Source: an uncultured bacterium (lineage in GTDB: Bacteria; Patescibacteriota; Gracilibacteria; UBA1369; PNNO01). From it: 32,000 bases of DNA. This document shows, in pieces, positions 694 through 30,891 of this stretch. The notes beneath the pieces are model-generated. The model did not search any database. It was not told where the DNA came from and worked only from the letters and a program-made list of their open reading frames with translations. The stretch lies in the NCBI GenBank assembly GCA_963704705.1, contig OY969931.1, positions 780,001-812,000 on the forward strand, in the 5' to 3' direction. A program made the translations under genes and the position numbers. Every line of letters begins with the position of its first letter. Within the stretch, counting starts at the first letter, position 1.

Positions 694-2160
<1,467 letters not shown>

Positions 2161-3079: not shown

Positions 3080-3081
3080 TT

Positions 3082-4002: not shown

Positions 4003-4132
4003 AAAAGAGTTTTATTAAAAAAATTCGCCCATAGAGCCTCGCAAGCTCGTCTCTGGCGTGTACATAATAAGAATTTTCTTTGAAAAAGCAAGGAAATTTA
4101 AGTACAATACGCCTGTCATTAACTTTAAATAA

Positions 4133-4711: not shown

Positions 4712-4773
4712 TTATTGACTTTGCGTTGTAATATTCCTACTATCTAATTAGGAATGATTCTTAATAATTCCAA

Positions 4774-6559: not shown

Positions 6560-6561
6560 TA

Positions 6562-6870
6562 TTATTCATCATCTTCAGCCGATGGATCCGTTTGTTCTAA
6601 AACTTCCATTAATTCTTTTCCCCTTCTTTGTAATTTTTGCAAATATGGAGATTTATTTACTATGTCAGCTAAGTGGCCAGCTTTAAAGTGCCGTCCCCTT
6701 TCATTTACTTTGTATTGTGTAACTGGTTGATGGCTTTCATCAGATGCACAATCAGATAATCCATCACCATCACTATTTAAACCACCGTTACAATTATCAA
6801 TTTGAACTTCGCTATTTCCGAATAATCCCCCGGGTGCAAATATATCTTCAGGACCTTTTTTATTAGCCAT
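6562..6870 (-). CDS. hypothetical protein with one thrombospondin-type-3-like Asp motif (NSDGDGLSDC)
   Basis: 102-aa ORF with native AT-rich codon usage. No family recognised. Confidence 0.45.
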   Translation of the reverse strand: MANKKGPEDIFAPGGLFGNSEVQIDNCNGGLNSDGDGLSDCASDESHQPVTQYKVNERGRHFKAGHLADIVNKSPYLQKLQRRGKELMEVLEQTDPSAEDDE

Positions 6871-6952
6871 GATTTTAAAGTTATTATTTAAAGAGTATCA
6901 TTTTAAGATATTTGTTAAGTTTTGTCAAGTATGTATTTGTAATTCAAATTCT

Positions 6953-6964
6953 GATCCCGGGATC
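6953..6964. repeat. CCCGGG-centred perfect palindrome (gatcccgggatc)
   Basis: 12-nt perfect palindrome in an intergenic region. Same core as the repeat family at 14.8/18.7/21.5 kb. Confidence 0.5.
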
Positions 6965-7057
6965 GTGATATAGATTGTTGATTTTGCTTAAATTGAAGCT
7001 GAAATTGCTACTTTAAAATAAACTTCGAAAACAGCAAATATGTCAAATTTTAGTTTC

Positions 7058-7069
7058 ATGCCCGGGCAT
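7058..7069. repeat. CCCGGG-centred perfect palindrome (atgcccgggcat) followed by a degenerate subunit-like sequence
   Basis: 12-nt perfect palindrome. The downstream cattt..gtcaaattttcgctacgctcacctaccgg carries TTTGAC, GTAG and GGTAGGT words of the repeat family, in inverted orientation. Confidence 0.4.
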
Positions 7070-7187
7070 TTAAAACCTATAAAGTCAAATTTTCGCTACG
7101 CTCACCTACCGGCTCGCTCCAAAAGGCTTCGCTTGGGCTAAGCCCTGCGCTCCATACAGCTCCGTTCGCATTAGCTCACTTCGCTGT

Positions 7188-7276
7188 TGGTGCCGCGGGA
7201 GGGAATCGAACCCTCACATGGTATTACCCATACAGGATTTTAAGTCCTGCGCGTCTACCAATTCCGCCACCGCGGC
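7188..7276 (-). tRNA. tRNA-Leu (anticodon UAA), CCA encoded
   Basis: Reverse complement is GCCGCGGTGGCGGAATTGGTAGACGCGCAGGACTTAAAATCCTGTATGGGTAATACCATGTGAGGGTTCGATTCCCTCCCGCGGCACCA. It has a 7-bp acceptor, anticodon stem CAGGA/TCCTG with loop CTTAAAA, a long variable arm and T-arm GAGGG-TTCGATT-CCCTC. Confidence 0.95.
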
Positions 7277-7329
7277 AAATTTAGGCACAAATCTATTTAA
7301 GCGTGCCTGACATAAAATTTCAATAGCAT

Positions 7330-7719
7330 TTAATTACAAGTTGTTTCATCTGCTGTTATTTGAACTTCAGTAAATTTTTCATCGGAATCAGGACGCTTAC
7401 TCTCACCTTCTATCTGAATAACAGTACCTTTAAAACTAAATTCACCATTGCACATAGGCAGATCTTTAGTATAAACAACAAGCTGATCTCCATCTTCAAA
7501 ATCAACGTAAGAAATATAAGGATAATCCTCATGGATATCAATCATATGCTGCCATGGCTGATTCGACAATTTGCCTGTTAATTCAACTGTTTGGCCAACT
7601 TTAAGCTGTTTTTTTTCATTAGGAACAGGCTCGCACGAACAGGAACTGAAAAGTAAAATTGAAATAACGGGTATTGCTATTAGTCTCTTCATTTTATAAA
7701 GTTTAAATAACTTACTCAA
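7330..7719 (-). CDS. hypothetical lipoprotein
   Basis: 129 aa with signal peptide and lipobox-like LLFSSC. No family recognised. Confidence 0.55.
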
Positions 7720-7736
7720 TAATATATAATAAATTC

Positions 7737-8570
7737 ATGAAATTCAACAAACTCACATCTGAAGAAAAAGAAATAATCGAAAACAAAGGAACAGAACCGC
7801 CTAATTCCGGAGAATATAATGATTTTTTTGAAAAAGGTGTGTATTTATGCAGGCGCTGTAATGCTCTTTTATATTTATCTGACGATAAATTTCATTCAGA
7901 CTGCGGATGGCCAAGTTTTGATGATGAAGTTGTGGGTGCAATCAAAAAACAAACTGATGCAGATGGAATGCGCACTGAAATTCTTTGCAATAATTGCGGT
8001 GCTCATTTGGGTCATGTTTTTGAAGGTGAACATCTTACCAAAAAGAACACAAGGCACTGTGTAAACTCTTTATCAATGAAGTTTGTTCAGGCTGAACGCG
8101 CTATTTTTGCCGGCGGATGTTTTTGGGGAGTTGAACACTATATGAAAAAAGCTGACGGAGTTATTGAAACCACAGTAGGATATATTGGCGGTGATAAAGA
8201 AGATCCCACTTATGAAGAAGTTTGTGCTCATGGCACAGGCCACTATGAAGCGATTGAAATTTTATATGATCCAAAGAAAACAGATTATGAAACTTTAGCT
8301 AAATTGTTTTTTGAAATTCATGATCCAACACAAAAAAACGGACAAGGCCCTGATATCGGCGAGCAATATCAATCAGTTATATTTTATTTAAATGATGAGC
8401 AAAAAGAAATTGCTGAAAAACTTATTAAAATTCTGGAAGATAAAGGTTTGGATATTGCCACAAAATTATTTAAAGCAGGTAAATTCTGGCCTGCGGAAGA
8501 GTACCATCAGGATTACTATGATAAAACAGGGCATCAACCTTATTGTCACAAATATACAAAACGCTTTTAA
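7737..8570 (+). CDS. msrAB: bifunctional peptide-methionine sulfoxide reductase, MsrB-MsrA order
   Basis: The N-terminal half has the MsrB zinc/active-site pattern ([33 protein letters not shown]). The C-terminal half has the MsrA motif [10 protein letters not shown] plus [18 protein letters not shown]. Confidence 0.92.
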
Positions 8571-10756: not shown

Positions 10757-12055
10757 TTATAAAGTTGCAAAATACAAATAAGCACTGCAAACAAGTAAAA
10801 TTCCAATTGTTAACGGAAAGCTGAATTTTAAATAGTTAATAAAACTGATATGCACGCCGTTCTTCTTGGCTATATCAGCTGAAATAACATTCGCGGATGC
10901 TCCGATCAAAGTTCCATTTCCTCCAAGACAGGCTCCAAGCGAAAGCGCCCACCATAAAACAGTCGTATCGATTAACGGAAATTGAGCTTGTATACCTATT
11001 ATCACCGGAATCATAACTGTTACAAACGGAATATTATCAAGAACCATTGATACAATTCCTGAAACCCATAAAACAATTAAAGACAATAAAAATAAATTTG
11101 AAGTTGAATTCGCCACCATTTGGCTTAAATCTTCAAGTACACCTGTTTTTTCAATACCGCCAACCATCACAAATAAACCCGCAAAAAATAACAAAGTACT
11201 CCATTCAACTGATTTAAAAGATTCATGAATGCTTATCTTTTTGGTTGTTAAAATTGCCAAAATTATTGCTGCTGTAAATGCAATCACATAATTTGGAAGC
11301 TGCAAATAACTTTGCATCATAAAGCCAATAATTGTAACAGACAAAGCAATAACTACTTTTACAACAAAGTCTTTATGAATTGTTTTTTTAACAAATTTCA
11401 TTTTAACTTTTCTGATAATTACATTGGCAATAGTTAAATCAATAAGTTTATCAGAAATAGGTTTTATCGCCTTCCAGTTAACAAATATAAAAACACCAAG
11501 TGTAAACAAAATAACAGCTAAAATCGGCATCCACAGATTAGCAAGGAAATCCATAAAATTTAAATGGGCTGCACCACCGATAATAATATTCGGCGGATCA
11601 CCTATTAAAGTAAGCGCGCCACCTATATTCGAAAATATAATCTCGGCAAAAATGTAAGGTTTTGGATCTTTACCCATACCTTTAACCAATTCGATTGTTA
11701 AAGGAACAATTAAAATAACCGTGGTAACATTGTCTAAAAATGCTGAAAATACAGCTGTTAAAATTGAAAAGAACAAAAATATAGCGAGTGGATTGCCTTT
11801 TGTAAAAGCCGCTATTTTAACATTGAGCCATTCGAAAATTCCGCTTTTTGAAGCTATATTCACAAGTAGCATCATTGCCATTAAAAGCAAAATTGTTTCA
11901 AACTGAATTGCCTCTATTGCTTCTTCCGGGCTGAGAATTCGCAAAATCACCATTAACAAAGCTCCCAATAAAGCTGTAAGTGATTTATCAAATTTTTCAA
12001 TAACTATGAAAATGAATGCGAGTCCGAATATTCCGAGGGCGATGTATTCCAACAT
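10757..12055 (-). CDS. ArsB/NhaD-superfamily (CitMHS-like) ion/anion permease
   Basis: 432 aa with about 11-12 TM helices. Motifs FLDNVTTVILIVP and GDPPNIIIG / LDNIPFV are typical of this permease superfamily. Confidence 0.7.
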   Translation of the reverse strand: MLEYIALGIFGLAFIFIVIEKFDKSLTALLGALLMVILRILSPEEAIEAIQFETILLLMAMMLLVNIASKSGIFEWLNVKIAAFTKGNPLAIFLFFSILTAVFSAFLDNVTTVILIVPLTIELVKGMGKDPKPYIFAEIIFSNIGGALTLIGDPPNIIIGGAAHLNFMDFLANLWMPILAVILFTLGVFIFVNWKAIKPISDKLIDLTIANVIIRKVKMKFVKKTIHKDFVVKVVIALSVTIIGFMMQSYLQLPNYVIAFTAAIILAILTTKKISIHESFKSVEWSTLLFFAGLFVMVGGIEKTGVLEDLSQMVANSTSNLFLLSLIVLWVSGIVSMVLDNIPFVTVMIPVIIGIQAQFPLIDTTVLWWALSLGACLGGNGTLIGASANVISADIAKKNGVHISFINYLKFSFPLTIGILLVCSAYLYFATL

Positions 12056-12090
12056 TTGAATGAATTACTTCTCGATTACAGATCTTACAC

Positions 12091-12624
12091 CTATTTATAT
12101 AACTCTTCAACATCAGATCTTACAAGATCTCTTAGAGTATCTGCGGTGTCAAAATCGACATGTTCATCAGGTTCTTCTCTATTATCATGAGCAATTGTTG
12201 TTTTAATAAGTGAAAGATAATAATTTCGTAAACGTTTATCTGGAAGTAATTCTCTTTTTGTATTTAATAAAATTATTAACAATCCCAATTCATGAAGATT
12301 TCTTCTTTGAACTGCTATTTCAATAAGATTATTGAACAATTCAAATAAATTTCTTTCCAAATAATCTTGTGCAATTTCATCTGCAGGAAATCTCATTTCC
12401 AAAAGATGAGTATTAATTTGTTTATGTGCTTCGGAATCTGAAGTTTGAACAGATTGAGCATCACTGCGATCAATCAAACTTCTTTTATAAATAGTTTCAA
12501 GCAATTCCATTATCTTAGCTATTTCCGTCATTTCTGTTATTTCACCAGCCCAATATGCCAGACTGTGTTTATAACCTATTCCTTGGCATACTAGTGGGTT
12601 TTTTCTTTGATTTTCCATAAACAA
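12091..12624 (-). CDS. hypothetical protein
   Basis: 177-aa ORF with native composition. Probably co-transcribed with 12692-13258. Confidence 0.45.
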   Translation of the reverse strand: MFMENQRKNPLVCQGIGYKHSLAYWAGEITEMTEIAKIMELLETIYKRSLIDRSDAQSVQTSDSEAHKQINTHLLEMRFPADEIAQDYLERNLFELFNNLIEIAVQRRNLHELGLLIILLNTKRELLPDKRLRNYYLSLIKTTIAHDNREEPDEHVDFDTADTLRDLVRSDVEELYK

Positions 12625-12691
12625 AGATTAAGAGTATGTATTTATATCCCTTTTTGGAGTTTTTGTCAAGGTTTGTTTTGGAAGTTGATGT

Positions 12692-14979: not shown

Positions 14980-15078
14980 ATTATTCTTTGCTTAAATATC
15001 TATTTTGGATTGTTTGAGCAACGCTTATTTGAAAGAACAGCGAACAAAACCACAACACCCCAACGGGAGGAACAACAG

Positions 15079-15657
15079 ATGGGAAAACTCAGCATGTTTG
15101 TGATGATCGTCGTGATGGTCGCCAACGTCTTCGGATGCAGCAGCCGGAACGTGGGAGAACGTCAGCCCATGCCCGCGAGCACCATGGCGGTGCTCGATCG
15201 GATCGACGACTGCGACGACAGGTACTGGATCTACGCACGCAACCGCGATGACGACGCCTATGCCGCATGCCTCGAGAACCCGCCGGTGAGTCAATCTCAG
15301 TGTGCACTCGACTACGATGCAGCCAAGGAGCAGTCATGGAACGCCTACGAAGACTGCCTCATCAACCTGCCCATAGTCTCGCACGACTGCGTCCTGCAGC
15401 TCCAGCCCTTCAGCCAGGAGCAGGACACCGACGGCGACGGCGTCGAGGACTTCTGGGAGTACCAGATGGGCCTGAACCCCTGCGAGCCGTGTAGCTACGG
15501 CGGTACCCCCGGCGTGGACTGCGACGGTGATCTCGACTACGATCGGGATCCGCGCAACAACGCCGATGACACCAACCCGATCTGCGGGATGCTGTGGGAC
15601 GACGCGTGGCACAACGAGAACGCGGACTACGGCCTCAACGACGGCGGCTGCGTCTAG
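15079..15657 (+). CDS. foreign high-GC lipoprotein, Cys/Asp-rich with thrombospondin-type-3-like Ca-binding motifs
   Basis: Start ATG at 15079 is preceded by GGGAGG 8 nt upstream. Signal peptide plus lipobox (MVANVFGCSS). DTDGDGVEDFWEYQMGLNP and DCDGDLDYDRDPRNNADD motifs. Codon third positions are overwhelmingly G/C. The track ORF start at 15010 is probably an upstream extension. Confidence 0.7.
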   Translation: MGKLSMFVMIVVMVANVFGCSSRNVGERQPMPASTMAVLDRIDDCDDRYWIYARNRDDDAYAACLENPPVSQSQCALDYDAAKEQSWNAYEDCLINLPIVSHDCVLQLQPFSQEQDTDGDGVEDFWEYQMGLNPCEPCSYGGTPGVDCDGDLDYDRDPRNNADDTNPICGMLWDDAWHNENADYGLNDGGCV

Positions 15658-15686
15658 CAGCCGGTTCGCAACCTTTCAACAACCAG

Positions 15687-15719
15687 GGTGCGGCGCTTCG
15701 ACCTTCGAAGCGCCGCACC
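15687..15719 (+). terminator. GC-rich 15-bp perfect hairpin (terminator-like, no U-tract)
   Basis: ggtgcggcgcttcga-cct-tcgaagcgccgcacc lies 30 nt after the stop codon and marks the right edge of the high-GC island. Confidence 0.6.
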
Positions 15720-15757
15720 TCTTGCCTATATCTGCAAAATTGTTCTACACTATAAAT

Positions 15758-16336
15758 ATGATAAAAAAAATCATCTCAATTCTCGCATTATTTTGCGTTA
15801 TAGCAAGCCTCTCGGGCTGCAACTTATATAACCGCGATCATTTAAGCATTTATAATCCCGACCGCATCACAAAAAAATGGTTCGGCACTTATGTTGAGCC
15901 AGGCAACTCCCCTGTTGAACCTGAAAAATTCAAAGGTTATCACACAGGCGTTGATTTTGAGACTTTTGAAGATGAGCAGAATATCGATGTTCCTGTTTAT
16001 GCCATTTGCGACGGACCGATTGCACGAAAAGTTATTGCACAGGGCTATGGTGGTGTTGTCGCTCAATCATGCATCATCAACAATGAAAAAGTAACGGTTG
16101 TTTACGGCCATCTGGATATATTAAGCGTTACCAACGATGCTCAGGAAGTGCTTACATTCGGTGATTTTATTGGAAATTTGGGTGAAGGATTCACGAATCA
16201 AACAGATCACGAACGAAAACATCTTCATTTAAGTATTCACAAAGGTATTGAAGTAAATTTACTTGGCTATGTTCAAACACCCGAAGAATTATCAGAATGG
16301 ATTGATCCCTTGGATATTTTAACTTTAAAAATATGA
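15758..16336 (+). CDS. M23/LytM-family peptidase lipoprotein
   Basis: Real start is probably ATG at 15758 (MIKKIISILALFCVIASLSGC lipobox). Has YHTGVDFE and HLHLSIHKG metal-binding motifs. The track ORF from 15527 is an artefactual extension through high-GC DNA. Confidence 0.75.
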   Translation: MIKKIISILALFCVIASLSGCNLYNRDHLSIYNPDRITKKWFGTYVEPGNSPVEPEKFKGYHTGVDFETFEDEQNIDVPVYAICDGPIARKVIAQGYGGVVAQSCIINNEKVTVVYGHLDILSVTNDAQEVLTFGDFIGNLGEGFTNQTDHERKHLHLSIHKGIEVNLLGYVQTPEELSEWIDPLDILTLKI

Positions 16337-19573: not shown

Positions 19574-20553
19574 ATGAATACTGAACCTAAAGACAAAATC
19601 GCAGAAGAATTAAACGCACAACCGGAATTAGCAGACAAAGCAAATGATACAAGTGCCCAAGAATATAATATGGGTGTCTCAGATGAAGTATCTGAGGTTC
19701 TTGAACAAACTGAATTAATCGAAAAAGCAAAAACAGAAGTAACAAAGGCAGTTAAACAAGCAGGAGAAGTTTTGTTACAACTTTTAGGTAAGGTGGATTT
19801 TGAATTTAAAGATGATGGAAGCCATGTTACAAAGGCTGATACAAGAGTGCAGGAATTAATCCGAACTCATTTAAGCGAAGCTTTCCCTGATTTTTCTTTT
19901 ATGGGTGAAGAAGGTGAAGATTCCGGAGTACAAAAGTTTGATTTTGAATGGGTGGTTGATCCATTGGACGGGACTATAAATTTTGGAAATAATATTGATT
20001 TCTTTGCTATATCAGTTGGCTTGAAGTATAAAAACACTCCGGTTTTGGGGGTTGTTTATGTCCCTGCTCAAAAAGAATTAATTACAGGTGATTTAACTGG
20101 TAAAAGCAAATGCAATGATATAGAAATCCAGGAATCAACTGAAAAAAATCATAAGAAAAAACCTTTTGCAGATGGTGTTTGGAATAAAAATACAGTTGTT
20201 TATTCAGAAGAGGCTGCAAAATTAAAAGGTAAGCCTCGAACAATGGGTACAGCAGTTCATACATTAATGGATGTTGCCAAAGGCGGATTCGGTCATGCAG
20301 TTTTATCAAATGTATTTATTTGGAATATTTTAGCTGCAATGCCAATTTTAAAAGGCGCAGGTGCTGATTTGTTAATTTGGCAGGATGGTGAGTGGAAAAA
20401 ATATAATAAATTGACCCTAGTTTATTTAATAAAGAAAACTCTTTTACTGTTTTAGCTGCAAGCAATACTAATCTAGACTATTGCAAAGCTAATATTTCAA
20501 TTGATAAATCACGTGAATTTGATTTTCAGACGAAAAACCACCTTTTGACATAA
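19574..20553 (+). pseudogene. inositol-monophosphatase-family gene (copy/domain 1), 3' end frameshifted
   Basis: IMPase motifs are present: KADTRVQELI, FMGEEG, WVVDPLDGTINF. The reading frame breaks near 20410-20413. The family-like C-terminus (DPSLFNKENSFTVLAASNTNL...) continues in another frame to the stop at 20551-20553. Confidence 0.7.
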
Positions 20554-21426
20554 GCACTACCGATAAAAAAGAAGCTGAATATGATCCTGCAGTACTTGAT
20601 CGTTTTCAATCGTTATTTGCAAAAATAGCAGAGATTACACGAAACGTTATTAATACAGGTAAAAAAGAAATTACTTTAAAAGAGGATGACTCAGAACAAA
20701 CAAACGAAGACGTTAGAATCGAAGAAGAACTCAAAGAATTATTAATGACTGAATTCCCGGATTTTAATTTTATGGGAGAAGAAACACCAAATATATTAAC
20801 TGGCAGCAGATACGGTTTTATTGTTGACCCTATCGACGGCACAACAAATTACTCAAACAATTTACCGTCTTTTGCAACCATAGTTTGTCTGGACTTTTGA
20901 CAGCAAACCTATTGGCGGATTGATTTACTTCCCTAAGCTTGATATGGCGGTTTTCAACAATGCAGATTCGACTTTTATAAGCAGATTTGATCATAATAAT
21001 GAAGCACAAATAGAAAAAGTTGATGTAAAAGATGACTTATTTGAAAATGAAGATGAAAATATTCCATTTGGATTTAGTTCACACGCCAGAAGCAAGATCA
21101 AATATAATAAAGAAGTATCAAAAGTATTTAATCAGCCACGAACATTCGGTTCAGCTGCTTCAGTTATCTCATTTACAGGTACGGGCAGTTTAAGAGGATT
21201 TGTTTTGGCAGGAGCAAAATTATATGATTTTGCAGGAGGTGTGCCTTTAATTGAAAACGGAGGTGGTAAAGTATATATTCTTGATGAGGAAGACGCTTGT
21301 TGGAAAGAATATGATGAAATGTTTGAAAAGCTAATGCAGGAACCTGAAGTTAAAAGATATATAATTGGAGGTGGCCCAAATACAGTTAAAAAATTGATGG
21401 AAAATATGCATCCTGAGGTGAAATAG
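20523..21426 (+). pseudogene. inositol-monophosphatase-family gene (copy/domain 2), no start codon, internal frameshift
   Basis: Frame 20523-20900 encodes ..EELKELLMTEFPDFNFMGEE..FIVDPIDGTTNYSNNLPSFATIVCL but has no start codon before the motif region. It shifts near 20884-20900 into ORF 20920-21426 (..KPIGGLIYFP...). An A-run at 20533-20537 could link it to copy 1. Confidence 0.65.
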
Positions 21427-22740: not shown

Positions 22741-23586
22741 TTATTTCAATTTGTTTTTAGCTTGCTGTCCCGATAAAGGATTACTTTTTGTAATCACGCT
22801 TCGCCCTATTTCTTTTTCTGTATTTTTTCTGGCTTCGCCTGCGATATTTCCACCCCGTCTTGCTACTTTTTTATTTTCGGGTATGCCTTCGGGTTTCTCG
22901 TTTTTTGAGATTTCTGTTGTAACTTTTTCTCCAAGCATAGTGAAAATCAGCTCAAGGTCAGTCATGTTGTCACGCAAATTCGCTTTTGATTTGGTTGGAA
23001 TATTCTTGAATTTCTTGTATTGAGCCGGCGTCATGCCAAAAGTTGCTTTGGAAATTTCAGCGGTTAATATTCCATAATCTTTGTAATTGGATATACCTCT
23101 TTGTTTCCATTCATCTGTAAGATCTTGCCTGATCACAATGCCGCGAAGCCTTTTATCAATCCAGTCTTTGGGATAGCCTTTTTGCTCATAAAGCATTTTC
23201 ATTCTTTCCTGAGCCAACTCCGGATTTTCAATTTCTTCCATTCTTTCATAACCCACTTTTGCCAGCCATCTTTTGAAGGGTTCAGCTTTTGGTGAAGGAA
23301 TAGATTGAATAATACGAAGAAGTCCCTCCGTATTCGCGCAATCTGTAATATACTTTTTCCCGTCAGTAGCTTCCAATTTCAGTCGGTGACAAAATGTCAC
23401 CACCTCACTTCCTTCTTCCCTAAGCCTTTGTGAAAGCTTATTCCAATATTTTCTGGCTGTTTGATAATCCGGATTATCTGTTAAAGCAGAACAAACGTCC
23501 ACTACAGAAAAATACCACTCCTTATTATGCCAGATTCTTCGAATCTGTTTAGATTGAAAAAGAACGAGTTTATTTGAATGATCCAT
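22741..23586 (-). CDS. BRO-N domain protein (DinD / phage antirepressor-like)
   Basis: 281 aa. The N-terminus FQSKQIRRIWHNKEWYFSVVDVCSAL..ARKYW fits the BRO-N pattern, and the overall layout resembles DNA-damage-inducible protein D. Confidence 0.65.
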   Translation of the reverse strand: MDHSNKLVLFQSKQIRRIWHNKEWYFSVVDVCSALTDNPDYQTARKYWNKLSQRLREEGSEVVTFCHRLKLEATDGKKYITDCANTEGLLRIIQSIPSPKAEPFKRWLAKVGYERMEEIENPELAQERMKMLYEQKGYPKDWIDKRLRGIVIRQDLTDEWKQRGISNYKDYGILTAEISKATFGMTPAQYKKFKNIPTKSKANLRDNMTDLELIFTMLGEKVTTEISKNEKPEGIPENKKVARRGGNIAGEARKNTEKEIGRSVITKSNPLSGQQAKNKLK

Positions 23587-23726: not shown

Positions 23727-25196
23727 TTGTCTCTATCCAAAACCGACTACAACCAATACCTTCAATGCCCCAAGCAGCTTTGGCTGAGTAAGTTTCGCAA
23801 AGAACTCAAAGCCCCGACCACTGAAGTTCAGCAGAATGTTTTTGACCAGGGGCATGAAGTTGAATCGTACGCGGACAAGTTGTTCCCCGAAGGCGTAACA
23901 GTTAAGGATTGGTACGCGAGAGGCCGCGAAGAAACGCAAAACTACATCAACCAAGGAAAAACAACGATTTTTCAGGCCAATGCGCTCACAAACGACCTAT
24001 ATTGCAAGGCCGACATCCTCCACTTCAACGACGAGACTAAAAAGTGGGACCTTTATGAGGTTAAGTCTTCGACTGAAGTTAAGCCCGAGCATATTCCGGA
24101 TGTGTGTTTTCAGAAAATCGCACTACAACAAGATGGAATCGACATTGATCGCACGTATCTGGTGCATGTTAATAAAAATTACGTACGTCAGGGCGAAATC
24201 GATCCCAAAAAACTGCTGACTTTCGAAGATATAACCGAGGATGTTGAAAACCTGCAACAAATCACTGAAACTCAAATTCCAAAGGCGCTTGAAATTCTAA
24301 AACTCACGCAGGAACCCCAAATTCAGATCGGAAAGCAATGCGATAAGCCGTACGAGTGTCCGTTTAAGCCTTATTGCTGGGCAAATGTTCCGGAGTTTTC
24401 GATTTATGATATTACAAGGATAACCAAAAAGCAGCTTAAAGCCCTGCAAGGCATGAATATTTTGAAGATTGAGGATGTTCCGGATGATTTTGACCTCACC
24501 CCTGCCCAGCAAAATCAGGTTATGGCAACAAAAACTCAAAAGCCGCTGATTGATAAAGAAGCGATTCATGACGAGCTCGCTAAACTCGAATATCCTTTGT
24601 ATTTTCTGGATTATGAAACGTACGGCGGGGCTGTTCCCCTTTTTGACGGACTTAAACCTTACCAGCAAATGCCTTTTCAGTACTCTTTGCATGTTGTTGA
24701 GCAAGAAGGCGCTGAGCCTGAGCATTATGAATATCTGCATCAGGGCAAGGATAATCCGATTCCGGCTTTGCTTGAAAGTATGCGCGCGAATATAGGTGAT
24801 ATTGGCAGTGTGATTGTGTGGTATAAGGGGTTTGAAAAAGGCAGGAATGAAGAGATGGCAGCGATGTATCCGGAGTATGCCGGGTTTTTGAAGTCAGTTA
24901 ACACGCGTGTTTTTGATTTGATGGATATTTTTAAGGCCCAGCATTATGTTGACGTGGGTTTTAAGGGAAGCTGTTCAATAAAAAAGGTTCTTCCTGTTTT
25001 GGTGCCTTCGCTATCGTATGCGGATCTGGAAGATGTGCGGGAAGGCGGAATTGCTTCGCTTTACTGGTTTAAGCATGTTTATGGCGCGGTTGATTCGGCG
25101 ATGCGGAAGCGCGTGTCGGAGAATTTACTTAAGTACTGTGAATTGGATACGTTGGCGATGGCAGAGGTTTGGAGGAGTATGTTAAAATTAAATTAA
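23727..25196 (+). CDS. DUF2779-like protein: N-terminal Cas4/RecB-like PD-(D/E)xK nuclease + C-terminal DEDD-like exonuclease fold
   Basis: 489 aa with a TTG start. YLQCPKQLWL, DILHF..WDLYEVKSS (D..ExK) and a C-x5-C-x5-C cluster (QCDKPYECPFKPYCW) give the Cas4-like 4-Cys pattern. C-terminal YFLDYET, VWYKGFEKG and YCELDTLAM resemble Exo I/II/III motifs. Confidence 0.7.
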   Translation: MSLSKTDYNQYLQCPKQLWLSKFRKELKAPTTEVQQNVFDQGHEVESYADKLFPEGVTVKDWYARGREETQNYINQGKTTIFQANALTNDLYCKADILHFNDETKKWDLYEVKSSTEVKPEHIPDVCFQKIALQQDGIDIDRTYLVHVNKNYVRQGEIDPKKLLTFEDITEDVENLQQITETQIPKALEILKLTQEPQIQIGKQCDKPYECPFKPYCWANVPEFSIYDITRITKKQLKALQGMNILKIEDVPDDFDLTPAQQNQVMATKTQKPLIDKEAIHDELAKLEYPLYFLDYETYGGAVPLFDGLKPYQQMPFQYSLHVVEQEGAEPEHYEYLHQGKDNPIPALLESMRANIGDIGSVIVWYKGFEKGRNEEMAAMYPEYAGFLKSVNTRVFDLMDIFKAQHYVDVGFKGSCSIKKVLPVLVPSLSYADLEDVREGGIASLYWFKHVYGAVDSAMRKRVSENLLKYCELDTLAMAEVWRSMLKLN

Positions 25197-25197
25197 T

Positions 25198-26043
25198 ATG
25201 AAAAATATAATAGTAAATCAGCCAAAAAGCGACAAAATGGTGGATCAGCTTGCCTCATTGTATTATGCGTTAATTCAACTTGATAAAAATGAAGCAGCCA
25301 ATTTTGATTTATCTCAGTTAAATTTTGTTGGATCTTTGCTTTTAACTACTCTTGCCTCTTACGTCAAAGATACCGATAGTGACTATATATCCCCGGATAA
25401 CGTAGATTTACGTTCTTATTTAAAAACAATAGCTTTTCCAAATTGTCTAAAAACCATATCAAGTATTCAAAAAAGGAAGAACTATTTGCCGCTCAGTTTG
25501 ATTGAGAAATCAAATAATCCCAATGAAAAAGAAGAAATACTTAATTGTTTTTATAATTTAATTTATAAATTAACAGGCGAAATTCCCAAAACACAAAATG
25601 CACTTATTTATCCGATTTCAGAATTAGTAAATAATATTTTTGAGCATAGCAAAAAAAAACAAGGTGTTATCTCGGGACAAACATTTCCCAAAAAGAATTT
25701 TCTTGAAATATCAATTGTAGATCGTGGAAGAGGAATCTCTGCTTCATATAAAGAAGCTTTAAATAAAGAATACACTGATGAAATGGCATTAAAACAAAGT
25801 ATGTTGGGCCAGTCCTCTAAAAGTGATGTAGAAAGAGGATATGGGATTCACACTTCAAAAAGATTGGTATGTACAGGATTGGGTGGTGAGTTTTTATTGC
25901 TTTCCGGTAATGCCGCATTAATATCTACCCCCAAAAGAGATAAAATTTTCACTTTGCCTAAATTTTATTGGCAAGGTGTGATAATATCATATCGAATACC
26001 GTTCCCCAAGTCCCCTATTGAAATATATAAGTATGTGGAGTAA
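25198..26043 (+). CDS. GHKL-superfamily ATPase (SpoIIAB/RsbW-like HATPase_c) with an uncharacterised N-terminal domain
   Basis: 281 aa with N-box ELVNNIFEHS, G1 VDRGRGI and G2 GYGIHTSKRL. The ATG is 1 nt after the DUF2779 stop. Confidence 0.7.
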   Translation: MKNIIVNQPKSDKMVDQLASLYYALIQLDKNEAANFDLSQLNFVGSLLLTTLASYVKDTDSDYISPDNVDLRSYLKTIAFPNCLKTISSIQKRKNYLPLSLIEKSNNPNEKEEILNCFYNLIYKLTGEIPKTQNALIYPISELVNNIFEHSKKKQGVISGQTFPKKNFLEISIVDRGRGISASYKEALNKEYTDEMALKQSMLGQSSKSDVERGYGIHTSKRLVCTGLGGEFLLLSGNAALISTPKRDKIFTLPKFYWQGVIISYRIPFPKSPIEIYKYVE

Positions 26044-26071
26044 TATATAAGATCCTCAAATAATTTATATT

Positions 26072-26407
26072 ATGAATAATGAAACAACAAAAAGAATAAA
26101 GATAATTGATATTGTTGGCGCTAACACAATTTCTTCAAGAGATGTTGTTATAAATTTTCTGCCAATTATCAAGAAAAATTTAAAAAACTCTATTGTTTTC
26201 GATTTTTCAGATATAAATTTTATTTCAAGGTCAGCTGCGCATGAACTTATTAAGCTTAAAACAAAATATTTTAATATTACATTTAGCAATTTGGCGGATG
26301 AAGTATCTGAAATGCTTAGGATAATTGCCGCAAACATTGCTTCACCAAAAAAATCACAAGACGAATTTTCACCGGAAAAAACTACTTTTAGTGCGTTGTT
26401 AAACTAA
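26072..26407 (+). CDS. STAS-like DUF4325 protein
   Basis: 111 aa. SSRDVVINFLPIIKKNL..IVFDFSDINFISRSAAHELI matches the DUF4325 / anti-sigma-antagonist-like pattern (..lDF.gV..iS.Sf..E..). Confidence 0.6.
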   Translation: MNNETTKRIKIIDIVGANTISSRDVVINFLPIIKKNLKNSIVFDFSDINFISRSAAHELIKLKTKYFNITFSNLADEVSEMLRIIAANIASPKKSQDEFSPEKTTFSALLN

Positions 26408-26410
26408 TTT

Positions 26411-26884
26411 TTGAATAAGATTGATCAAGAAAAAAGAGAATTCCTTAAAGAACATTATCACTATGAAGTTGAAATGATGATTTTATCATTTCAATCAAAA
26501 TTAAATATTAATTATGATAAAACTTCTTTTTTAAATAACCTTTTAATAGAAAACTTTTTATTACATTCTAGAGGTTTAATGGAATTTTATTTTTTTGATA
26601 TTAAGAAATTTAAAGATGATGATGTATTAGCATCAGATTTGATTGCAAACTGGAAAAAATTAAGACCTTATGAGTATAAAGATGTGGAATATATTAAAAA
26701 AAGGATTGATAAAGAACTTGCTCATCTTACTTGGTCTAGAAAAGATCCTAATGATATAACTAGAAATTGGGATTTGAATGAAATATTTAATATTCTAAGT
26801 CATACAACTAAAATTTTCATTAATAATTTATCTAAAAATTTAATAAATAAAAAAATAACTGAACTTAAAGAAATGATACAATAA
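26411..26884 (+). CDS. hypothetical helical protein (possible HEPN-like R-x6-H: RIDKELAH)
   Basis: 157-aa ORF with a TTG start 3 nt after the STAS stop, predicted all-helical by eye. The HEPN suggestion rests only on one short motif. Confidence 0.45.
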   Translation: MNKIDQEKREFLKEHYHYEVEMMILSFQSKLNINYDKTSFLNNLLIENFLLHSRGLMEFYFFDIKKFKDDDVLASDLIANWKKLRPYEYKDVEYIKKRIDKELAHLTWSRKDPNDITRNWDLNEIFNILSHTTKIFINNLSKNLINKKITELKEMIQ

Positions 26885-26897
26885 CAATGCTGTTATT

Positions 26898-29800
26898 TTA
26901 CTCAATCGGCCATTTAGGTATTAATTCATCAATTTCTTTCATAACTCTTATTGTCTCCCTTAAAGATACAACAATTTTCATATAATGAACTAAATCGTCA
27001 ACCGACAAACACCTATCTGCTTTTTTTCTATCTTTTAACCACTTTTCCAAAACCTGATAGCCTCCTATCATAAATTCCCAAACTTCAAGCTCAATACCTT
27101 CAAAATATTGACCTGAATTTACATAAACACGTTTTTCAGTTGGTTCGTACTCTACTTTTTCAATCTTCCAATCCTCAATATTTTCTGGTTTTTTACCTCC
27201 CGTTATAACATTCCACTTTGAATTATCATCAAAAATAGTACTAGAATCATCAAATGGATTTTCACCAAGAAGATGCAAATTAACAAGTTCCTTACCCTTT
27301 TTTACTAAATTTTTAAATAATTTCTTATCTTTAATTAATGGAATACGTGGAAAATCAATTTTTAATTGTTCAGCATAACGATTCCTGTAAGTTGGGCAAT
27401 GTAAAATAGCATAAATATAATAAAAAATATCTTCTGATCCAAAAGTTTTAGATAAATCGCCAGGTCCATTTCCAATGTATTTCATATAAAGTCTTTTAGA
27501 AAATTCACTTATAAATTTGTTATTTAAATTTGACTTAAATTCTTTTTCATTAAGAATGTTTGATTGAATATTTTCTATTTCAGGATATATATAAATAGGA
27601 AAAATATAATTTTGATCAGAAATAATATGTATATCAGCTAAAGATTTAACTAGAAAAGAATGATGGAAACTATCTCCAGGTATAAGTCTAGTGGTAACCA
27701 ATGCAAAATTTAATTTCAACAAATTACGCATTGTTTTATAACCCGGCGTGCCGACAAATCCTCTAGTTTTACCACTATACCAAATTTTTCTAATATCAAA
27801 AGGTCTGTATGAAATATCAAAAATTAAATTATCGTCATCTCTATGCTCTAATGTATCATTTTTTGCGTTATCAATCTTCCAGTCTCTACTATCTTTTTCT
27901 AAATTGTATTTTTTCTTTAATTCATCTTCAGTTAGTTCTCGAAAATCATTTAGTGTGTTTGTTAATTCTTTTTTATCAAAATGAATACAAATACCATCTC
28001 GTTCTGTTTTTACACCGCTTCCATATTCGTGAAAAATATCTTGGACACCCCAAAAATCACCATACTCAACAATTTTGTCACTAGAATCATCAGCATTGGG
28101 GACAAAAAAGTTCAGCTTTCCCAAAAATTCACTCCATTTTGTTGATAAAAATGCAGAATTAAAATTTTTATAGTCAATTTCTATCCAATTTAACTTATTA
28201 AATCTATTATCCAGCCATTCATATTTATATTTTTTCAACCCCCATAAATCAAAATAACATAAATTACATGGTTCATTATTATCATTTTTTTTAATAAAAA
28301 AATTAATTGAAACTCCGGTTTGAATATTAAATACATTCTCATCCGTGCTCCCATCAGTGCATACTTCACCTTTTCGGCTATTCCCATGTAAATTTAAGAT
28401 ATAAATTTCATTAAATTCATTTAATAATTCTCCCCTCATTCTTCTGTGAGTAATTCCATCAATAAATGAATTAGATGTAATCATAGCAAATATTCCTTGT
28501 CCCGATTTGTGTAATTTCCACTGCGCAAACCTAATAAATTTAATGTAATCATCATCAATATTAATTTTCTTTTCATTTAAATTCTTTTTGTAATCTTTTA
28601 ATAAATCTAAAATCCAAGGCTGTTTATTCATCATACCAAAATTACTATAAGGAGGATTACCTATTATTGCTAAAACTTCTTTATTGTTTTTTATATCTCT
28701 TGCAGATTCACTTTCTTTAGATATTGATTCAAAACCAAATAAATCTATTTTGGGATTTTCTGGATTATCTAAACTGTTTGCTAAAAATACTTGAAAGCGA
28801 TCATTTGTAGGATCTTCATCTTCGTAAGTTTTGTTAAAATCAAACCCAAGCCGCTCAATTTCAAGAGCAAGTTTTAAATGAGCAATGGCATAAGGTGCAA
28901 CTAATAATTCGAAACCATAAAAATGTTTTAATATGTGCTTTAAAACTTTATCTGTAAACTTCTTTTTAACAATATCTTCACCTAATGCACCATTTTTCTT
29001 TTTAATTCTTTCATGAACCTGTTGAATAGCTGACATTAAAAAAGTGCCTGTTCCGGCTGCAGGATCAAGTATATTAACTTCTTCATTTGCCAATCCATCT
29101 TCTTTATTAAATTTTGTTTTCTAATAAATAATCCACACTCCTAACAATTAGATCCACTATAGGCTTTGGGGTATAATAAACCCCCCTCGCTTCCCTTTCT
29201 TTTGGATCATATTCCTTCAAAAACGGCTCATAAAACTGTATTACAGGATCTTCGTTTACTTTATGGTCTACTAATTTATGCCGAATTTTATCAAGTTTTT
29301 AATTATTTAATTGATCTACAAGAGCTTCTGTAGCCTGATGAATAGAAGGAAATATTGACGAAACTCTTTTAACAAGATCATATAAATCCTTAAGAATAGG
29401 CACATTCTTTGGTAAAAAATCTATTGCTGTTGTAAGGGTGAAAGAGGAATCGGGGTGTTTTTCAGTATATTCTAGTGACGCTAAGAATAAAGAATACGCT
29501 AATGTTTCCGCAACCATATTAGCAAATTGGTGTTCATCAATATTTTGTATTAATGTTTCGGAAAAAGTTTTCTTTAATCTGTGCAATTCTGTGAATCTTC
29601 ATCTTCTTTATTAAAATTTTCTTCAACTTGTTGACTTAAAAGTTTAGTTTTTCTTGCAAGTGCCAATGCTAATTGTTTCCGAGTTTTTGCATCATAAGCT
29701 TGACCCAATAAAAATTTAACCAATAAAAGATCCAAATTTTTCTCAGAACCCTCGGTATAATCTCTAATATCAAAAGTTAATTCTTCAATCTTTTTTGCAT

Positions 29801-30167
29801 TACCATCAGAATCCCATTGCCATAACTCCCATTGCCTGAAATTAGTAAAAATAATATTTTCAAGACTATCTTTGTATTTTTTGAAGCTGACTTCAAAATT
29901 ACTATCCTAAATCATCAATGGCGATTTAACTTCAATCCACCCAACCAATCTATTTCCGTCTCTTATAGTAATATCAGGAAATCCAACTTTATCTTCATGC
30001 TGAGTGCTGCTTTCCTCTGCAGTTGCAGAAATATGATCATTTTTCTTATCATTCTCTTTAAAGAAGTTTTTCAAAAATTCACAAAAAGGTGGGTAATAAG
30101 TTCTTTCAGTGCCAATATCTTTAATTTTTTTAATTTCCTGTTGAAATTGTTGTAAAGAATTCATCAA
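26898..30167 (-). pseudogene. decayed type IIG/IIL (MmeI-like) restriction-modification fusion: PD-ExK nuclease + helical spacer + N6-adenine MTase + type-ISP/LlaBIII-like C-terminal specificity domain
   Basis: Segment 1 (30167-29910) has GFPDITIRDGNRLVGWIEVK, then an in-frame TAG at 29907-29909. The same frame continues to 29574, with a frameshift at 29577-29598. ORF 29586-29302 has FANMVAETLAYSLFLA, then an in-frame TAA at 29299-29301. The same frame then gives FYEPFLKEYDPKEREARGVYYTPKPIV, with a frameshift at 29110-29120. The main ORF has LDPAAGTGTFL (motif I), IIGNPPYS (motif IV), FYYIYAILHCPTYRNRYAEQLKIDFPRIP and IGGYQVLEKWLKDRK. Confidence 0.85.
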
Positions 30168-30232
30168 ATATAATAAATATAAAACATTTCATTTATATCA
30201 CGAAAAACTTATATGCTCAATTTATTGAATGA

Positions 30233-30891
30233 TTATTTAATATGTTCTTTTATTTTCTTTTTCAATTTCTGAACACTTCTATTATTTACTAATTTTTGAC
30301 CTATACTAAGTAATTCATAATAAACAGCATCTTTCTCTGCAGAGCTTTTCTTTCGCGAATACTTTATCCCAAAATTACAAACTTTGTTTCTTTGGATTTA
30401 CGCGAAGTATCATAATGCGCTCCACCGAGTTTATTACAAACATATTTAATAACATCTTCAGGATAAATAATCTGACCATGAATAATAAAACTAGGTTGTT
30501 TCAAATATTCACTAAGCTTTATAGGCCTATTTTTCTGTTTCTTACTTAGCTTATACATTTTTTTTGCTTCTTCATTTGAAGTTTCTTTATTTAATTCTTG
30601 AAATTTGGAAATTTTAAGACCTTTATATTTTGCTCCACCAGCTTGATAAAAAGTAGTATTTCCAACGGAATCTAAACTATCTTTTCTATTAGAATCATGA
30701 AGAAGAATCTTGATTTCAATATTCATCATTTTTGCCGCCTTCAATAATTTCCCATAAACAATTAAATTTCTAAGGACATTACTTGATCTTCGTAGAGAAT
30801 CATCAGCAATAACTTGATTCCATTCTTTGGTGATATATTCAATATCCTCAGCAACAAGTTGCAACAAATCATTGTCCATATTTAAAACCAT
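30233..30891 (-). pseudogene. hypothetical protein, probable 3' frameshift
   Basis: ORF 30364-30891 (175 aa) stops at a T4/G3 run. About 50 further stop-free codons (..IKYSRKKSSAEKDAVYYELLSIGQKLVNNRSVQKLKKKIKEHIK*) follow in another frame, which is unlikely by chance at ~28% GC. Confidence 0.4.

Follow-up and report, generated by a model that had tools for sequence, protein, structure and literature searches.

The window, by which we mean the whole 32,000-nt stretch of DNA analysed, carries four co-oriented genes on the plus strand: gene 1, encoding a 489-residue DUF2779 protein (positions 23727-25196); gene 2, encoding a 281-residue VapK-like kinase (25198-26043); gene 3, encoding a 111-residue STAS/DUF4325-type protein (26072-26407); and gene 4, encoding a 157-residue helical protein (26411-26884). 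A preliminary description of this DNA had given these open reading frames and their intergenic gaps of 1, 28, and 3 nt correctly. The gaps showed no terminator-like site. Their GC contents are 0.44, 0.32, 0.28, and 0.21, respectively, and the break in composition noted earlier at 25196/25198, between genes 1 and 2, is genuine.

The genes surrounding the four had been described as BRO-N, toxin-antitoxin, and decayed restriction-modification genes, and this account of the context proved accurate. Divergent from gene 1 on the minus strand lies a BRO-N gene (22741-23586; Pfam Bro-N, 6.8e-14; PADLOC candidate family PDC-S13, 9.8e-120); a perfect sigma-70 consensus occurs on the minus strand at 23647-23619. 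Convergent with gene 4 is an N-terminally truncated Type ISP/IIG restriction-modification gene (26898-29093, minus strand) that matches Type_ISP_C (2.3e-87) and positions 546-1075 of the 1096-position PADLOC REase_MTase_IIG model (1.2e-152); because it aligns only to residues 894-1461 of the 1578 in LlaBIII, its N-terminal half is missing. A RelB/YafQ pair is annotated in L009, a contig from the same strain.

Homology and intact ATP-binding motifs mark gene 2 as a kinase of the VapK/CapK type, in which an N-terminal STAS-like domain (about residues 1-128) is followed by a GHKL ATPase/kinase domain at the C-terminus (about residues 133-281), the latter detected by Pfam HATPase_c above threshold (1e-6). 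In hhalign comparisons the gene 2 family profile, which represents a family of 324 clusters at 90% identity, matched Escherichia VapK with a probability of 97% (E 8e-11) over 243 aligned columns covering both domains, profile columns 15-271 pairing with VapK residues 18-285. Against CapK, the GHKL part alone aligned (CapK residues 206-318, 43% probability). An AF2 model of gene 2 (pLDDT 90) used as a Foldseek query retrieved GHKL folds only, namely WalK, Hsp90, and TopoVI-B.

The N-box of gene 2, E142-L-V-N-N146-I-F-E-H150-S (25621-25650, plus strand), pairs with 'EIYANSFEHS' of VapK, and its E142, N146, and H150 are invariant among 20 homologues, as are the G1 box D175-x-G-x-G179 and the G2 box G214-x-G216 (20/20). 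In the N-terminal domain, hhalign placed 'FDLSQLNFVGS' of gene 2 opposite 'FIFTHCRFLRP' of VapK, so that F43 (codon 25324-25326, plus strand) aligns with VapK F54, the equivalent of CapK W68. These aromatic residues serve in ssDNA sensing, W68 stacking on ssDNA (PMC13373217), and each of the 20 homologues has an aromatic residue in the F43 column (15 W, 5 F).

Gene 3 is the presumed substrate and partner of this kinase. The window protein itself matches Pfam STAS below threshold (E 0.013; 15.7 bits against a 22.6-bit threshold); within its family, 40 of 42 members match STAS (best 3e-8) and 14 of 42 match DUF4325 (best 7e-5), and homologues from phages carry the annotation 'DUF4325 domain-containing' or 'STAS-like'. 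Its best PDB sequence match is the anti-sigma antagonist TM1442 (E 0.024). The family HMM detects psiM100 ORFC (4.5e-20), BF1-TP2 gp42 (4e-18), and VapS (2e-4). Homology of gene 3 to VapS and CapS is detectable only in the LDFSxV strand and the STAS fold.

The tripeptide S52-R53-S54 of gene 3 (codons 26225-26233, plus strand), located at the phospho-acceptor site, where STAS helix 2 begins, is invariant in the 42-member alignment, which also shows a conserved C-terminal tail, 'MLRxVAANRAxPK'. The surrounding motif F-[IM]-S-R-S-[AF]-A-[HD]-E is common to the gene 3 family and its phage and archaeal homologues. The proven acceptor serine of CapS, S54 in Enterobacter and S58 in Vibrio, stands immediately before F-P-R-E (PMC13373217), and S54 of gene 3 falls in register with it. 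S54 is the preferred candidate, and most likely the residue phosphorylated if gene 3 accepts phosphate. When the sequences are aligned without gaps, however, the canonical SpoIIAA-type acceptor position (TM1442 S59, VapS S48) coincides with the invariant Arg53 rather than with a serine, so phosphorylation of gene 3 is not assured.

The two genes are tightly linked. Of 42 Patescibacteria species loci, 41 have gene 3 directly downstream of gene 2 and in the same orientation, while the remaining one is at a contig end; the median gap is 28 nt. No other conserved neighbour family accompanies the pair in the Patescibacteria loci. Together with the GHKL and STAS matches, this linkage bears out the preliminary suggestion that genes 2 and 3 form a kinase/STAS signalling pair, and when co-occurrence was checked across neighbourhoods it was these two genes that proved co-conserved, whereas gene 1 was rarely found with them and gene 4 was not.

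Gene 1 is the nuclease it had been taken for, a Cas4-like domain fused to an exonuclease fold. It matches Pfam DUF2779 (PF11074; 1.6e-40, 138.7 bits against a cut-off of 23.3) and Cas4 (1e-7, 32.5 bits against a cut-off of 22.7), and has a four-cysteine cluster (Cys14, Cys205, Cys211, Cys217) and the nuclease motif D96...E111-V-K113. DUF2779 proteins combine a Cas4-like PD-(D/E)XK nuclease with an RNase H-like 3'-5' exonuclease domain (PMC3985635, PMC13621843). Such genes occur near the pair in three lineages only, represented by the window together with L009, by L006, and by L029, and their order changes: in L006, the closest relative (84% identity), DUF2779 lies downstream of the pair, from which a 790-nt gap and an antisense ORF separate it; in L029 it lies upstream, at 36% identity. 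The pair stands without DUF2779 in 39 of the 42 species loci. Gene 1 is therefore a facultative island neighbour of the pair and not a fixed component, as an early caveat had allowed, and it may be an occasional functional associate.

These distributions also bear on the preliminary proposal that all four genes constitute one defence operon, with DUF2779 as effector, the GHKL/STAS pair as switch, and gene 4 as a HEPN-like accessory or toxin. The tight spacing, the shared orientation, and the absence of terminator-like sites suit that proposal, as does the proximity of DUF2779 to the pair (about 1 kb or less) in three lineages, one of which (L029) is independent. In L037 and L044, moreover, the pair is closely followed by a PD-(D/E)XK nuclease of a type other than DUF2779, and a nuclease that produces or uses up ssDNA would suit an ssDNA-sensing kinase. 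However, the scarcity of DUF2779 beside the pair, its displacement behind an antisense ORF in the closest relative, and the sharp GC break between genes 1 and 2 all count against a single four-gene system. Gene 4, moreover, appears in no other pair locus, and its family was never beside the pair in 80 loci. We consider a four-gene operon improbable, and as a claim about one operon system the proposal was not borne out.

Gene 4 belongs to a large helical-bundle family that is unlinked to the pair elsewhere, and it too is an island neighbour. A phmmer search of 1.84 billion representatives returned 1395 clusters at E<=1e-3 and 135 at E<=1e-10. The relatives are proteins of about 160 residues encoded by solo genes amid metabolic and miscellaneous neighbours, and neither gene 2 or gene 3 homologues nor any conserved neighbour was found in the 80 gene 4-family loci. 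Conversely, gene 4 is missing beside every other pair examined. Conserved family positions are Y18, E19, H52-x-R54, R98-x3-E102-x2-H105, R110, and W120; they include the R-x6-H motif pointed out before (R98-x6-H105), which is nearly invariant. The AF2 model (pLDDT 91.7) consists of four long helices. No significant match to gene 4 was obtained in Pfam, PADLOC, NCBIfam, PDB, or BFVD. Faint HEPN-type HMM matches each arose from one of 46 family members (HEPN_RiboL-PSP, 0.038; pEK499_p136, 0.071; Cas13c, 7e-4), and the fold similarity to AbiV and to a HEPN-MNT toxin was weak and non-significant (Foldseek E 5-7).

It is conceivable that genes 2-4 form a VapKSC analogue in this strain, gene 4 having been captured as a STAS-restrained toxin in place of the PIN protein VapC. 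The 3-nt gap after gene 3, the nearly invariant R-x6-H with the conserved H52-x-R54 in a four-helix architecture, and the faint HEPN and AbiV/HEPN-MNT resemblances would fit such a capture, and in psiM100 a third gene follows the pair, homologues of which are annotated as PIN domain proteins. On the other hand, the HEPN assignment is significant in no test, the relatives of gene 4 are solo genes, the 84%-identical L006 has the pair without gene 4, and the GC content of gene 4 (0.21) is nearer that of the adjacent restriction-modification remnant (0.28) than that of the rest of the window. Capture of gene 4 as the toxin of the pair seems to us very doubtful.

The earlier impression that the combination is none of the named anti-phage systems held in part. 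HMM searches of genes 1-4 against PADLOC-DB v2.0.0 matched no named system: gene 1 matched Cas4 models only, gene 2 hit a single DrmA model of 1750 positions, and that only in its N-terminal region (positions 101-244), and genes 3 and 4 matched nothing. Yet gene 2 is homologous over its full length to VapK, the kinase of a named system, although the third component of that system, the PIN protein, is absent. VapKSC and CapKS are DNA-damage-sensing immune switches (Chambers et al., EMBO J 2026, PMC13373217), and CapK and CapS act as DNA-damage-responsive regulators of CBASS, Bub, Thoeris, and other immune operons (PMC13373217).

Like VapK of VapKSC (E4736), gene 2 joins a STAS-like domain to a GHKL domain without an HTH and aligns end to end, with correspondence both at the ssDNA-contacting aromatic position and in the N-box, 'N-x-F-E-H-S'. 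Like VapS, gene 3 is a STAS protein of about 110 residues with a short conserved C-terminal extension, encoded right after the kinase, and both VapKSC and the window pair occupy variable or mobile regions. Unlike VapKSC, the window system has two genes, not three, and the acceptor region reads S-R-S in gene 3 but A-S-P in VapS. Neither phmmer searches with VapC nor a scan for the PIN N-terminal motif revealed a PIN/VapC gene after the pair in the window or in the 42 Patescibacteria loci, and no PIN domain was found in gene 4 (Pfam) or in 20 downstream genes scanned.

With CapKS the pair shares an invariably adjacent kinase-then-STAS arrangement, a homologous GHKL domain, and the serine before [FA]-[PA]-[RH]-E in register with the CapS acceptor. 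Unlike CapK, gene 2 lacks an N-terminal HTH and begins directly with the STAS-like domain; unlike CapS, gene 3 has no winged-helix DNA-binding domain and shows no alignment to the CapS C-terminal half, so that it cannot repress in the way CapS does. Nor are the genes downstream of the pair immune operons in most loci, as they are for CapKS; they are mixed, comprising serpin, Fic, LemA, IS200, HicB, PD-(D/E)XK, DUF3800, SecDF, IF3, and unknowns. The pair is thus a two-gene relative of CapKS and VapKSC without a recognisable output gene. Relatedly, a 2017 paper (PMC5499597) described a PIN group as 'transcriptionally coupled to DUF4325 genes', which ties the DUF4325 family to VapKSC-type systems.

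SpoIIAB/SpoIIAA and RsbW/RsbV likewise consist of a GHKL serine kinase and a single-domain STAS protein, which the kinase phosphorylates there. The pair shares with them the STAS fold and the strand-loop-helix acceptor region, and genes 2 and 3 could accordingly be an ordinary partner switch, made up of an anti-sigma and an anti-anti-sigma factor and acting on a host sigma factor, unrelated to phage or DNA damage. Some gene 2 homologues are named 'anti-sigma regulatory factor (Ser/Thr protein kinase)' by JGI, the TM1442 match of gene 3 points the same way, and sigma-70 genes lie a few kb from the pair in two loci. However, gene 2 scored 17.6 bits against the NCBIfam SpoIIAB/RsbW anti-sigma F model TIGR01925, far under its cut-off of 135, and the additional N-terminal STAS-like sensor domain is foreign to SpoIIAB/RsbW, whereas the alignment with VapK runs the full length. 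The pair has no linked sigma factor or PP2C phosphatase among its conserved neighbours, and it is distributed as mobile elements are, patchily and with carriage by phages, prophages, and plasmids. An ordinary sigma-factor switch is therefore unlikely.

That distribution extends well beyond Patescibacteria. Homologues of both genes are present in Bacteroides phage BF1-TP2 (gp43/gp42, after the endolysin), in Methanothermobacter prophage psiM100 (ORFB/ORFC, on the inserted fragment IFa), and on Pseudomonas plasmid pBYT1-1; Streptococcus prophage Javan140 probably also carries the pair, after its lysin. In HMM comparisons the mobile-element kinases scored 1e-56 and 1e-35. The BF1-TP2, psiM100, and pBYT1-1 pairs, which bear automatic annotation only, have the same gene order, the same sizes, and the S-R-S-[AF]-A-[HD]-E motif; they reside on phage, prophage, and plasmid, whereas the Patescibacteria pair clade is chromosomal. 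The GC content of the pair was below that of the flanks in 37 of 44 loci, and one locus has two copies of the pair, one of them interrupted by an IS. Among 145 neighbouring genes, raw counts were four for Fic, three for DUF3800, two for AbiE, two for RT, and three for BRO-N/PDC-S04. In its patchy distribution, its AT-richness relative to the flanks, its location in variable regions, and its carriage as phage, prophage, and plasmid cargo, the pair behaves as a mobile accessory module, which points to a phage- or stress-responsive switch and not a housekeeping regulator. Against this, many neighbours are housekeeping genes, such as those for ribosomal L10/L12, SecDF, enolase, ATP synthase, and IF3.

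We favour the reading, with a probability of roughly 0.6, that the functional unit is the gene 2-gene 3 cassette, a phage- or stress-responsive switch of the VapK/CapK type, and that the other two genes are neighbours. Gene 2 would be a serine kinase whose STAS-like sensor domain packs on the GHKL kinase domain. By analogy with VapK and CapK, ssDNA arising from DNA damage or phage replication would enter the interdomain groove, stack on F43, and turn the kinase on; gene 2 would then phosphorylate gene 3 within S52-R53-S54, most likely at S54, and the modification would alter binding by the STAS face and the conserved C-terminal tail of gene 3. Because gene 3 lacks a DNA-binding domain and the pair has no conserved toxin neighbour, the target is presumably encoded elsewhere or depends on the locus; with no output domain to name, this mechanism is incomplete. 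The homology, the motif conservation, and the linkage of the two genes are observed, whereas activation by ssDNA, the choice of acceptor residue, and a role in defence are inferred.

A bolder version of this cassette reading, possible but on the unlikely side, is that the pair is a portable ssDNA-sensing switch without a dedicated toxin, in which the C-terminal tail of the phosphorylatable STAS protein either engages a host factor in trans or controls an adjacent effector, such as the DUF2779 or other PD-(D/E)XK nucleases, Fic proteins, or the HEPN-like gene 4. If so, the pair would be a modular 'sensor head' common to Patescibacteria, to Bacteroides and Streptococcus phages, and to an archaeal virus, and the window would hold a new nuclease-armed, VapKSC-like abortive-infection system.

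Four adjoining plus-strand ORFs make up the locus: gene 1 (23727-25196, 489 aa), gene 2 (25198-26043, 281 aa), gene 3 (26072-26407, 111 aa) and gene 4 (26411-26884, 157 aa). ORF calls and reading of the junctions in the sequence agree on gaps of 1, 28 and 3 nt, as given in the preliminary description, which had proposed the four as a candidate defence-type operon of DUF2779 nuclease, GHKL ATPase, STAS-like DUF4325 protein and a helical, perhaps HEPN-like protein. Gene 1 matched Pfam DUF2779 (1.6e-40) and Cas4 (1e-7), and has Cys14, Cys205, Cys211 and Cys217 as well as the motif D96...E111-V-K113. In published analyses DUF2779 proteins are fusions of a Cas4-like PD-(D/E)XK nuclease with an RNase H-like 3'-5' exonuclease (PMC3985635, PMC13621843), and the description of gene 1 as such a nuclease with a four-Cys cluster and an exonuclease fold stands. 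Gene 2 matched HATPase_c (1e-6), and its N, G1 and G2 boxes showed no variation across homologues. Gene 3 by itself gave a weak STAS match (E 0.013); in its family, STAS was found in 40 of 42 members and DUF4325 in 14 of 42. Gene 4 had zero matches in Pfam, PADLOC and NCBIfam. GC content drops from 0.44 in gene 1 to 0.32 in gene 2, the break noticed earlier, and is 0.28 and 0.21 in genes 3 and 4.

Genes 2 and 3 form a two-gene cassette that is the conserved and probably also the functional unit; the four genes together do not constitute a system. Close homologues of gene 2 number 46, and a profile search extends this to 324 clusters, nearly all from Patescibacteria. We fetched nine contigs by exact protein and 42 species-level loci, and searched these 51 loci with all four proteins by tblastn. 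In 41 of the 42 species loci, gene 2 is succeeded by a co-oriented gene 3 homologue at a median gap of 28 nt; the remaining locus is cut off by the end of its contig. Together with clustering of six neighbours per locus, three on each side of the pair, in which no conserved neighbour family emerged, the searches left gene 2-gene 3 as the only conserved linkage, hence the two-gene cassette. Nor did tblastx of the pair's flanks, 450 nt on the downstream and 300 nt on the upstream side, reveal a small ORF or motif shared beyond closely related genomes. Among the fetched loci, gene 4 lay beside the pair only in L009, a contig of the same strain as the window. Gene 1 was near the pair in L009 and two other contigs: in L006, the closest relative (84% identity for gene 2, 82% for gene 1), it lies downstream of the pair, separated from it by a gap of 790 nt and an antisense ORF, and in L029 a 36% identical homologue is found immediately upstream, 190 nt away. 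The proposed four-gene operon is thus not conserved, and the caveat attached to it, that gene 1 might be a mere neighbour, is borne out by this shifting position in three contigs; across the loci, the co-occurrence suggested for checking was confined to these contigs for DUF2779 genes and to L009 for gene 4.

A four-gene operon having the DUF2779 protein as its effector would suit the close spacing of the genes in the window, but given the linkage data it is improbable. Cas4-like or PD-(D/E)XK nucleases do recur near the pair, being of the DUF2779 type in the window, L006 and L029 and of the PDDEXK_1 type in two further loci (L037, L044); this amounts to ~5 in 43 loci against fewer than one expected from an assumed background, a minor lead that would make sense for a switch sensing ssDNA. 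The four-gene 'operon' should stay out of defence catalogues as a unit.

Gene 4 had appeared to be an orphan in a word-indexed search, which gave the same-strain copy only, until exhaustive phmmer returned 1395 representative clusters (50% identity) at E <= 1e-3, 135 of them at E <= 1e-10. The family, for which there is no Pfam model, comprises four-helix proteins of ~160 aa with the motifs EHxxYE, LHxR and RxxKExAHLTxxR; Y18, E19, H52-x-R54, R110, W120 and F136 are invariant, and R98-x3-E102-x2-H105 is nearly so. The helical character and R-x6-H motif noted earlier are therefore upheld by the AF2 model (pLDDT 91.7, four long helices) and by R98...H105, whereas the queried HEPN likeness is not: profile, PDB-sequence and Foldseek searches of the family and fold all fell below significance, with faint matches to HEPN models, each in one member, and a weak fold likeness to AbiV and a HEPN-MNT toxin. 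Neither gene 2 nor gene 3 homologues occurred in 80 metagenomic loci of the gene 4 family, where the genes alongside were miscellaneous and no neighbour was conserved. Gene 4 thus belongs to an uncharacterised family of solo genes and happens to stand behind the pair in the window strain. A strain-specific analogue of VapKSC in which gene 4 is a HEPN-like toxin draws on those faint matches and on the 3-nt gap to gene 3, and is quite improbable on the same searches and on the restriction of the arrangement to one strain.

The kinase-STAS switches of Chambers et al. (EMBO J 2026, PMC13373217) offer the closest comparison. CapK combines HTH, STAS and GHKL domains, and CapS a STAS domain with a winged helix; switched on via W68 by the ssDNA of DNA repair, CapK phosphorylates CapS S54, whereupon the repressor dimer dissociates and the downstream immune operon is turned on. 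VapK consists of STAS and GHKL domains and VapS of a STAS domain extended by a short C-terminal helix, its acceptor being S48; with the PIN toxin VapC they form VapKSC, which shields E. coli against a phage (PMC13373217). Using the sequences in the supplementary files of that paper, we found the gene 2 family profile to align with both VapK domains (probability 97%, E 8e-11, 243 columns). The alignment places 'FDLSQLNFVGS' of gene 2 opposite 'FIFTHCRFLRP' of VapK, so that F43 faces F54 in a column that is W or F in 20/20 sequences, and the N-box NNIFEHSKKKQG opposite ANSFEHSKSKIG. With CapK the GHKL part alone aligned, at 43% probability. The AF2 model of gene 2 (pLDDT 90) alternates strand and helix in its N-terminal half; Foldseek recognised the GHKL half only. 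In PADLOC, gene 2 also matched positions 101-244 of the 1750 in PDLC02567, a model of the DISARM protein DrmA (1.5e-10), from which it follows that some DrmA helicases may carry an N-terminal VapK-like GHKL module.

We therefore favor, with a probability of about 0.6, a cassette in which gene 2 is a kinase of the VapK/CapK type, probably activated by ssDNA, and gene 3 is its STAS substrate; gene 2, once switched on, would act through the STAS face and conserved tail of gene 3 on a target encoded outside the cassette. An ordinary anti-sigma partner-switching module would have the same GHKL and STAS folds, but it is unlikely, as gene 2 scored 17.6 bits against the anti-sigma F model, whose threshold is 135, while aligning with VapK along its full length.

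In gene 3, S22-R23, F45, F50 and S52-R53-S54 are invariant and the C-terminal tail is conserved. Likeness to VapS is confined to the LDFSxV strand; in a test on six sequences the family HMM gave VapS a score of 2e-4, there was no alignment with CapS, and a PDB sequence search with the gene 3 profile retrieved neither CapS nor VapS. In ungapped alignment, both S59 of TM1442, the canonical SpoIIAA-type acceptor, and VapS S48 coincide with R53, which is invariant. In CapS, the proven acceptor directly precedes F-P-R-E (S54 in Enterobacter, S58 in Vibrio; PMC13373217). Gene 3 S54 directly precedes A-A-H-E, and its counterpart in phage homologues F-A-[HD]-E. Because this register matches that of the CapS serine, we infer S54 to be the preferred candidate acceptor, with S52 as the alternative.

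The pair is absent from PADLOC-DB v2, in line with the earlier impression that no named system matches, although the full-length alignment of gene 2 with VapK qualifies that impression. The kinase is common to the pair and VapKSC, and by analogy the pair may work likewise, but it is without the PIN toxin; comparison with VapC and a motif scan of the loci found no PIN/VapC toxin hidden near it. CapK and CapS each have an HTH-type domain and the pair has neither. These observations suggest a free-standing form of the kinase-STAS core as well, a two-gene cassette without the output of CapKS or VapKSC, which have been known only since 2026 as ssDNA-activated switches that de-repress immune operons or free a PIN toxin. 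The cassette is widespread in reduced Patescibacteria genomes (at least 324 protein clusters) and is also cargo of bacterial and archaeal viruses and plasmids. Its target, once found, would show the reach of kinase-STAS signalling logic, and whether episymbiotic CPR bacteria, in which stress signalling and phage defence are both poorly understood, use the cassette to sense DNA damage or infection.

Classified with Pfam and PADLOC, 145 genes flanking the pair included both housekeeping neighbours (ribosomal L10/L12, SecDF, enolase, ATP synthase) and mobile, toxin-antitoxin or defence-like ones (four Fic, three DUF3800, two AbiEi/AbiEii, two reverse transcriptases, three BRO-N/PDC-S04, two DUF2779). 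The gene directly 3' of the pair differs by locus, encoding a serpin, HTH-Fic, LemA, an IS200 transposase, HicB, a PD-(D/E)XK nuclease, DUF3800, SecDF, IF3 or an unknown protein. Cassette GC is below that of the flanks in 37/44 loci (means 0.347 versus 0.387). In one Patescibacteria genome (L001) the pair is present twice, with 5 kb between the copies (6001-8319 and 11399-12644); in one of these an inserted rve-family IS separates the kinase gene from the STAS gene. Mixed neighbours, low GC and this two-copy, IS-split locus show that the cassette behaves as an accessory, horizontally moving module.

A tblastn search of annotated phage and plasmid records with gene 2 located the pair, under automatic annotation only, on mobile elements. 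In Bacteroides phage BF1-TP2, gp43 ('ATP-binding protein') and gp42 ('DUF4325 domain-containing protein') lie 3' of the endolysin; in Streptococcus prophage Javan140, a 298-aa kinase homologue and a 99-aa partner lie 3' of the lysin, with paratox and a nuclease gene as neighbours; and in Methanothermobacter prophage psiM100 (2848-5469 of record L135), ORFB and ORFC, followed by ORFD, occupy 'inserted fragment IFa'. Pseudomonas plasmid pBYT1-1 encodes an 'ATP-binding protein' and a 'STAS-like domain-containing protein', and a 6.8-kb A. baumannii plasmid a related single gene that adjoins BrnTA, with no partner annotated. Family HMM scores confirm the homology of both partners for BF1-TP2 and psiM100 (kinase: gp43 1e-56, ORFB 1e-35; STAS: ORFC 4.5e-20, gp42 4e-18), and ORFC and gp42 both carry S-R-S-F-A-[HD]-E; the Javan140 partner was marginal (0.004). 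IFa is annotated as an insertion; the flanking ORFs have notes of similarity to phage psiM2, whereas ORFB, ORFC and ORFD have none. For ORFD (492 aa), plasmid homologues carry PIN domain, GNAT and ASCH annotations; its PIN assignment comes from the annotation of one such homologue and motif inspection, while direct comparison with VapC gave no significant match and a PDB sequence search nothing. The psiM100 insert may be an archaeal three-gene VapKSC-like cargo.

The island context first described around the locus is present, namely a BRO-N gene, a RelB/YafQ pair, annotated in the same-strain contig, and an N-terminally incomplete Type ISP/IIG gene. The BRO-N gene (22741-23586, minus strand), upstream of the locus, aligns nearly end to end with PDC-S13, a candidate family of single-gene defence in PADLOC (9.8e-120), and has a perfect TTGACA-17-TATAAT promoter (23647-23619); genes of the BRO-N/PDC-S04 type turn up close to the kinase-STAS pair at other loci too. 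The Type ISP/IIG gene (26898-29093, minus strand), equivalent to residues 894-1461 of the 1578 in LlaBIII, has been reduced to its methyltransferase and target-recognition half; short minus-strand ORFs upstream of it (29299-30891) may be remnants of the nuclease-helicase half, and a PDB sequence search with the 175-aa ORF at 30364-30891 gave no match. Elsewhere in the window, GC spikes to 0.58 at 15001-15500, against ~0.35 for the genome, overlapping ORFs 15010-15657 and 15527-16336 and matching none of the Rfam families. An inositol-monophosphatase-like coding sequence (19574-21426, plus strand) falls into two ORFs, 293 and 168 aa long, where the same-strain contig has a single 617-aa call, which could reflect a frameshift, tandem duplication or assembly difference. 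The genome is of Patescibacteria (CPR), its close homologues all coming from such MAGs and a 16S gene being present in the window. This 16S rRNA gene (696-2160, minus strand) is complete, and 23S and 5S are absent from the whole 32 kb, so that the rRNA genes are unlinked; the sole tRNA is tRNA-Leu(TAA) at 7188-7276 (minus strand).
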